From: Escherichia phage Ec_MI-02
Sequence record: OP856590.1
Direction: 5' to 3' (one strand)
Length of the DNA: 64,000 nucleotides
Made by a program: the position numbers and the translations under genes. Shown here piece by piece: positions 44,619-45,685 of the stretch. The first letter of the stretch is position 1, and each line of letters begins with the position of its first letter. The notes beneath the pieces were generated by a model. The model was not told where the DNA came from, did no database searches, and worked only from the letters and a program-made list of their open reading frames with translations.

Positions 44619-45479
44619 TTATACCGCCATCTTTCCTTTAATTGGCGGGTGAGATACATAGTTGTTAAGAACAAAATCATGCGGCTTTGCGAATTGACTC
44701 AACCAAAATACCTGTGATTCTGTGTTCCATTCATCAAATTCATCTGGAAATTTTAATTGTAATTCGCATAAATCCATAGGTTCACGACGCAAAATTTCTT
44801 TACATTGTTCTACGTGATTCATATAGATATGAGTATTACCACCAGAAAATATCAAATCTCCAGGAATAAGATTACACATCTTAGCTACAATATGAACTAA
44901 CGTAGCATATGATGCAATATTAAATGGAAGACCGAGGAAAACATCTACCGAACGTTGATACCACTGCAAATCCAAATAGCCATTACGCACATTAAATTGA
45001 TAGAACATATGACAAGGTGGTAATGCCATTTGCTTGAGTTCAGCTGGATTCCATGCTGAAACAATTTGACGTCTATCATTTGGCAGTTTTTTAATACGAT
45101 CAACAACTTCTATAATTTGGTCTACACCACCAAAATCACGCCACTGTTTTCCATAAATTGGACCAAGTTCACCACTATGGTATCCTAAATCTTTTGCTTG
45201 ATTTTCGTAATTTTCATCCCAGACTGTTTTGCCTTGAATTAATGAATCATGTTGAATTAATCGCAAATCATTGACATTTGTGCTTCCCGATAAAAACCAT
45301 ATTAGCTCAGCAATGCAAGCTTTCCAGGCAAGCTTCTTAGTCGTTACTGCAGGAAAACCTTTAGTTAAATCCCAGCGTAATTTAGTACCGAACAAAGCAA
45401 TTGTTCCTGTGCCTGTTCGGTCATCGGTTTCATAACCGTTTTCCAGGATATTTTTAATTAAAAATTGGTATTGTTTCAT
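44619..45479 (-). CDS. td: Thymidylate synthase, uninterrupted
   Basis: Table ORF starts TTG 45491; ATG 45477-45479 gives 286 aa starting MKQYQ; continuous frame, no intron. Confidence 0.9.
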   Translation of the reverse strand: MKQYQFLIKNILENGYETDDRTGTGTIALFGTKLRWDLTKGFPAVTTKKLAWKACIAELIWFLSGSTNVNDLRLIQHDSLIQGKTVWDENYENQAKDLGYHSGELGPIYGKQWRDFGGVDQIIEVVDRIKKLPNDRRQIVSAWNPAELKQMALPPCHMFYQFNVRNGYLDLQWYQRSVDVFLGLPFNIASYATLVHIVAKMCNLIPGDLIFSGGNTHIYMNHVEQCKEILRREPMDLCELQLKFPDEFDEWNTESQVFWLSQFAKPHDFVLNNYVSHPPIKGKMAV

Positions 45480-45685
45480 TAGTTCATCCAAGAATATGTA
45501 GAAGGATATTTGGCAAAGTTAGGCTTATATCCTAATTTAACCATTTGTTTTGCTTTGCGAGTAAATCCTAAAGAACGCTCACCTTTAAGATATTGTTTTG
45601 GTGTCATAGGCCCTTGATGCATCTGCCGACAAATAAAAAGGGCCATAGCATTAGGAACATCCTTAACTTTTAATTTATTGCTCAT
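45479..45685 (-). CDS. Unknown 68-aa basic protein between frd and td
   Basis: ATG 45683-45685 overlaps frd stop (ATGA); stop 45479-45481 overlaps td ATG (TAATG); K/R-rich. Confidence 0.5.

Follow-up and report, generated by a model that had tools for sequence, protein, structure and literature searches.

A conserved basic 68-residue protein encoded in a polymorphic slot between frd and td of T4-like phages

What separates the genes of dihydrofolate reductase (frd) and thymidylate synthase (td) in Escherichia phage Ec_MI-02, and what might it do there? In phage T4 (NC_000866) the question does not arise: frd (145109..145690) and td (end 145112) overlap directly by ATGA, with nothing between them. 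In the 64,000-nucleotide stretch of Ec_MI-02 that we analysed (sequence record OP856590.1; hereafter the window), an open reading frame (ORF) of 68 amino acids lies between the two genes on the minus strand. An initial annotation, made from the sequence alone, took it for an extra small gene inserted into the junction with translational coupling kept, possibly coding for a nucleic-acid-binding or regulatory protein. We find that the ORF is a real gene, conserved in phages, and that the junction it occupies is a polymorphic slot.

The basic description of the locus held in full. The ORF translates exactly into the protein quoted earlier, and the product is indeed rich in lysine and arginine (10 K and 3 R against 1 D and 1 E; net charge +11, isoelectric point (pI) 10.26). 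Both overlaps at its ends are present in the sequence: its ATG (45685-45683) overlaps the frd TGA (45684-45682) as ATGA, and the last A of its TAA (45481-45479) also opens the td ATG (45479-45477), so that td spans 44619..45479. At ATGA and at TAATG alike, neighbouring genes form overlapping pairs, with stop and start codons interlocked on one transcript. The direct overlap of the frd stop with the td start in T4 was confirmed, and aligning the window to T4 reveals a single clean 204-nt indel with AATGA at either boundary. The ATGA and the 20 nt upstream of it are essentially the same in both phages; what precedes the td start in T4 here serves the 68-aa ORF. The difference is the second overlap, TAATG, which is added in the window and would mean two restarts between the frd ribosome-binding site and td. 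With a G+C content of 34.8%, near the 36.3% found across the window, the ORF is of ordinary composition.

Selection and homology identify the ORF as a gene. Comparing the window copy with those of Klebsiella phage Marfa, Enterobacter phage CIP9, Serratia phage 4S and two metagenomic relatives gave dN/dS values of 0.08-0.28 between genera, with synonymous sites near saturation. In a tblastn search, the protein was found in 237 phage records, and at least 80% of it was covered in 235 of them; together, these two results mark the ORF as a gene rather than a chance frame. Its start-to-stop length is conserved, and homologues at 35-45% identity exist in unrelated phages. The exact 68-aa protein is present on 332 contigs, and 1.84 billion representative proteins, searched with the family profile, yielded only 13 genuine cluster representatives: the family is narrow and restricted to phages. 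No paralogue was found in the window, either by tblastn or with the family hidden Markov model over six-frame ORFs. One copy is broken: on metagenomic contig IMGVR_UViG_2938479101_000007 (L013, 893..1100), a frameshifted ORF lies between intact frd and td, which makes it a pseudogene unless the assembly is wrong.

The gene is not new. It is annotated at the same junction in many genomes, an outcome that the initial annotation had itself named as refuting, and its family is known, though uncharacterised. Over 12 kb, the window shares 99.0% identity with Shigella phage pSs-1, whose copy is annotated as pSs1_00241 / YP_009111049.1, "hypothetical protein". This entry and its orthologues have the same protein sequence, the same frd-td position and the same overlaps; with no difference between them, they are the same gene. 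Among the 568 records that match the junction, 135 (Tequatrovirus/Dhakavirus) span the ORF, nearly all under the label "hypothetical protein"; RefSeq genomes annotating it there include pSs-1, ACG-C40 and IME537. The protein also has a UniRef entry, A0A449C5N9, and belongs to PHROG 9550 (unknown function), its residues 1-68 aligning to profile positions 1-68 of 68 with E = 1.3e-45. Two early genomes, JS10 and JS98, carry the ORF without annotation. The GenBank record of phage vB_EcoM_Shinka labels the protein DUF4858, which our Pfam scans do not support: the protein has no Pfam match at E up to 10, and none of the 29 family members matches DUF4858. Experimental data on the family were not found in the literature, and two accessory-gene screens (Silas et al.) do not have the protein among their supplementary gene sets.

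Is the ORF then an insertion into a T4-type junction? Aligning the junction with T-even genomes, as had been proposed, showed the ORF to be lacking in T4, T2 and T6. While the T4 junction is empty, T2, T6 and most relatives, the RB phages among them, carry a different ORF of 115 amino acids from PHROG 1928, called td.1 in a T6 record, RB32ORF229c in RB51 and bas37_0070 in Bas37. Three related genera have both families in tandem: in Marfa and 4S one divergent PHROG 1928 member is followed by the 68-aa ORF, and in CIP9 two such members precede it. Closer to T4 the picture is exclusive. A chimeric query of td.1 and the 68-aa ORF matched 509 records, none of which has both (0/509); at this megablast level, td.1 never stands alongside the 68-aa ORF in Tequatrovirus or Dhakavirus, and the two thus behave as alternative alleles among close T4 relatives. 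Setting these 509 records with either ORF against the 568 junction records leaves roughly 60-70 empty T4-type junctions. By this rough estimate, the empty junction of T4 is a rare, minority state and not the default, so taking it as the baseline does not hold when about 509 records have one ORF or the other in the slot. The notion of an extra inserted gene survives in part: the ORF is extra relative to T4 and looks acquired in this lineage, but the direct overlap from which it was judged is not the usual arrangement.

Although td.1 is an alternative cassette in the same slot, the two ORFs belong to unrelated sequence families and are set into the junction differently. Unlike the 68-aa ORF with its overlapping codons, td.1 is flanked by short non-coding spacers: 20 nt past the frd stop, with a GGCGGAAAA stretch just ahead of the td.1 ATG, and 45 nt ahead of td, with AAGG within. 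Supplementary tables of a transposon screen of Bas37 list high insertion counts for bas37_0070 (preprint, doi 10.1101/2025.11.20.689424), which is consistent with a dispensable gene. In the BASEL phages, td.1 is labelled 'putative homing endonuclease' (AugustSocin, bas37_0070); a Pfam scan found no nuclease domain in it.

How the 68-aa ORF came into this lineage can be read from its similarity to Dhakavirus JS10. The ORF and the first ~38 nt of td are 97.5% identical to JS10 at the nucleotide level (97-98% in two 100-nt windows across the ORF), whereas frd ranges from 66 to 94% and is mostly below 85% (one 100-nt block reaches 94%), and td drops to 67-82% past its first 200 nt. Protein identities to the Dhakavirus copies follow suit: 98.5% for the ORF product, 77-78% for Frd and 79-83% for Td. 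High identity sets in within a few bases of ATGA on the left and stops ~38 nt into td on the right, past which the window reverts to the Tequatrovirus type; the two crossovers accordingly lie a few bases at most from the frd stop and inside the conserved 5' end of td. When Td N-termini were compared at 15 loci, the ORF-bearing Tequatroviruses (the window, pSs-1 and L013) proved to have F6 and L12, the mark of a Dhakavirus-type td 5' end; T4, T2 and T6 have D6 and F12. Near-identity of the ORF between divergent flanks, together with this 5' end, points to import of the ORF with a sliver of td by recombination from a Dhakavirus-like donor. Going further back, the adjacency of ORF and td is old, since five Straboviridae genera have it in common; it recurs in Marfavirus, Kanagawavirus, Jiaodavirus-like Klebsiella phages and Serratia phage 4S.

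The expression signals fit an ORF that would be translated together with its neighbours. Shine-Dalgarno duplex energies in the window are -11.4 kcal/mol for frd, -3.5 for the ORF and -3.1 for td (T4 td: -3.5); the ORF and td are both downstream genes without a strong ribosome-binding site. The only Shine-Dalgarno-like element ahead of td is the GGATGA inside the ORF (Table 1), and TGGATG is kept at the 3' end of the ORF in Marfa, CIP9 and 4S. Five genera, the window's and four others, keep stop/start overlaps, with TAATG at the ORF-td boundary in Marfa, 4S and JS10 and GTGA there in CIP9. The phAPEC8 homologue, with no overlapping upstream gene, has a strong Shine-Dalgarno site of its own (-12.7 kcal/mol). 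In the scan, nothing resembling a terminator lies between frd and td, and neither promoter-like nor terminator-like sites lie within the ORF or at its two junctions. The only Rfam match was beta_tmRNA at 16.8 bits, noise against a gathering score of 84.

A strong site at frd, weak ones at the ORF and td, and conserved overlaps fit a chain of coupled termination and restart. The ORF would be read within the frd-td transcript, with neither promoter nor terminator of its own; ribosomes recruited by the strong frd site would reach ATGA, end Frd there and reinitiate on the ORF; a second such step at TAATG would bring them onto td. The three proteins would thus be made together, early in infection. 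Of the earlier proposal that coupling had been preserved, the overlap geometry stands, is conserved in four other genera and agrees with the Shine-Dalgarno strengths; the coupling itself is what we infer from them. Further upstream, just past gene 32, the window has a strong intrinsic-terminator-like hairpin (GGGGACC...GGTCCCC and a T run; 47578..47596, minus strand), which is the sole terminator-like site in 44300..47700.

What does the protein do? The AlphaFold2 model, built on a 29-sequence alignment, is compact with three helices (residues 13-24, 29-39 and 43-49; pLDDT 82.8, pTM 0.60). Basicity is a property of the whole family: across all 29 aligned members, pI ranges from 9.75 to 11.15 and net charge from +7 to +16, and neighbouring small ORFs are acidic (pI 4-5.6). 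No Pfam family was found for the window protein at E up to 10, no match in NCBIfam or among PDB sequences by single-sequence and profile searches, and neither a helix-turn-helix nor another known fold in two rounds of fold search with two models. Outside Straboviridae, homologues lie among arrays of small early or replication-module ORFs. Their neighbours include PIF1-like and DnaB-like helicases, an RNA ligase and a Tad2-like gene, yet no conserved neighbour or partner gene was found beside them, nor td or frd within 5-6 kb (Phapecoctavirus and metagenomic phages). A search for related loci with a family alignment retrieved 10.

On balance, we lean towards a genuine but dispensable accessory gene in a polymorphic slot, expressed by coupling, imported from a Dhakavirus-like source and coding for a binder of a negatively charged partner. 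That it is dispensable is suggested by its lack in T4, T2 and T6 and its presence in only the 135 junction records counted above. The conserved basic charge, and homologues in small-ORF arrays away from td and frd, favour an early protein of this kind, which is probably outside the thymidylate pathway. Such a reading also agrees with what accessory genes in variable slots generally show. The product would be an 8-kDa, strongly basic protein of three predicted helices, its likely partner either a nucleic acid or an acidic protein, of the host or of a defence system; binding would give a host-dependent advantage. In this functional part of the proposal our confidence is modest. Three points weigh against the proposal as a whole: the coupling is read from geometry and Shine-Dalgarno strength, the direction of transfer from Dhakavirus to Tequatrovirus from one ~38-nt signature, and in five Straboviridae genera the ORF invariably abuts the 5' side of td with interlocking codons, from which a role tied to td might follow.

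A bolder version, which we hold only tentatively, would make the 68-aa ORF and td.1 alternative, mutually exclusive cassettes for counter-defence or host takeover, the former with a new fold and recently swept between Dhakavirus and Tequatrovirus by neutralising a specific host factor. Small early accessory genes of T-even phages whose anti-defence role was shown recently offer a comparison. T4 nrdC.1 acts against Septu and bas37_0203 against Druantia III; like the 68-aa ORF, both are small, non-essential and without recognisable domain or structural neighbours (doi 10.1101/2025.11.20.689424). They are unrelated to it in sequence, and the likeness is one of category only. Identity of the ORF with either was considered and rejected: these are different genes, and bas37_0203 is located elsewhere. 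The anti-defence genes reported from the transposon screen of T4, Bas37 and Bas54 also sit elsewhere in the genome (doi 10.1101/2025.11.20.689424); all three phages are without the 68-aa ORF, and Bas37 has a td.1-type cassette. On one metagenomic phage contig (L016), a gene resembling Tad2, of an anti-Thoeris family (1286..1669, minus strand), shares a run of small ORFs with a distant homologue of the 68-aa protein that lies ~4.5 kb away.

Synteny is strict within Straboviridae, and this makes a role linked to td the main rival to a dispensable accessory gene, though one that we consider rather improbable. The protein would then serve thymidylate synthase or the T4-type dNTP-synthesising enzyme complex as modulator or accessory subunit, made in fixed ratio with Td, or the ORF would tune td translation. 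In all 13 Straboviridae loci examined (five genera), the ORF directly precedes td and its stop codon overlaps the start of that gene, and the weak td Shine-Dalgarno site is embedded in its last codons, just as such a role would have it. Yet the same pathway operates in T4, T2 and T6, which lack the ORF, and only 135 of the 568 junction records span it; Phapecoctavirus and metagenomic homologues do without td or frd nearby; and the ORF crossed genera with only ~38 nt of td rather than with the whole gene.

The regulatory reading of the initial annotation, made concrete as a sequence-specific DNA-binding transcription regulator of helix-turn-helix type, fares worse and seems to us unlikely. A small, basic protein with three predicted helices and family-wide charge would suit it, but no helix-turn-helix family of Pfam matched the window protein at E up to 10 or any of the 29 members at E up to 1. 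Nor is there a conserved operator-like context, and neighbours vary between phage groups.

Still less credible is a selfish mobile cassette, homing-endonuclease-associated or self-propagating, kept by mobility and not for any benefit to the phage. The sharp, gene-sized patch of near-identity between genera and the patchy presence in Tequatrovirus would agree with mobility, and in relatives the region is rich in homing elements such as I-TevI in td and mobE. However, 68 amino acids are too few for a nuclease, Pfam scans found no nuclease, GIY-YIG, HNH or LAGLIDADG domain, and the strong purifying selection on the protein implies that the product is used. The ORF is also independent of the td intron and I-TevI. 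Its removal by co-conversion during homing of that intron was tried as an explanation and rejected: a chimeric query of ORF and intron found 58 records with both, about what the overall intron frequency gives, so there is no association. Finally, a non-functional ORF, arisen by chance or decaying as a spacer, could appeal to the missing annotation in JS10 and JS98 and to the frameshifted L013 copy, but is effectively refuted by the signature of selection, the conserved length and the homologues in unrelated phages.

Table 1. Features of the frd-td locus in the window and the corresponding td.1 slots of T2 and T6.
Feature	Position	Strand	Remarks
68-aa basic accessory ORF (PHROG 9550)	45479..45685	-	identical to pSs-1 pSs1_00241 / YP_009111049.1
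ATGA overlap of frd stop TGA and ORF start ATG	45682..45685	-	weak Shine-Dalgarno site, -3.5 kcal/mol, equal to T4 td
TAATG overlap of ORF stop TAA and td start ATG, one base in common	45477..45481	-	read from sequence
GGATGA in the last ORF codons (W66-M67)	45484..45489	-	duplex energy -3.1 kcal/mol
frd (dihydrofolate reductase), 194 aa, strong Shine-Dalgarno site	45682..46266	-	86.6% amino-acid identity to T4 Frd
td (thymidylate synthase), 286 aa, intronless	44619..45479	-	ORF list
Putative laterally exchanged block, ORF and first ~36-40 nt of td, Dhakavirus type	45444..45685	-	JS10 identity profile, base-level boundaries, Td N-termini
115-aa PHROG 1928 ORF (td.1)	T2 locus L024, 2743..3090	-	frd-td slot
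115-aa PHROG 1928 ORF (td.1)	T6 locus L025, 7969..8316	-	frd-td slot

The window td is free of introns at ~44930, where the T4 intron with I-TevI (~1 kb) maps; around the I-TevI target, several exon bases are not those of T4 (CAACGTTCGGTAGATG in the window against CAACGCTCAGTAGATG in T4). The 3' third of td (44630..44815, minus strand) is mosaic: Td residues 184-286 are 76% identical to T4 and 97% to T6, against 97-98% to both for residues 1-183. An internal block of frd (45900..46100, minus strand), at 63-81% nucleotide identity to T4 between flanks of 95-100%, is another recombination patch. Directly upstream of frd, an acidic ORF of 81 amino acids (46266..46511, minus strand; pI 4.05) overlaps the frd ATG with its TAA, as TAATG. 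It was found in T2, T6 and L013 and is unmatched in the T4 and JS10 loci; judging by these comparisons, it makes a second extra gene relative to T4, abutting frd.

As a discovery, the 68-aa gene carries little weight, because it is already in the databases. Its surroundings do correct a common assumption: the direct frd-td overlap of T4 would be a minority, reduced state of a variable slot and not the ancestral norm. The 8-kDa protein itself is well defined, strongly conserved, recently exchanged and without a recognised fold; it would be sensible to include it when therapeutic T4-like phages are screened for accessory or anti-defence genes.
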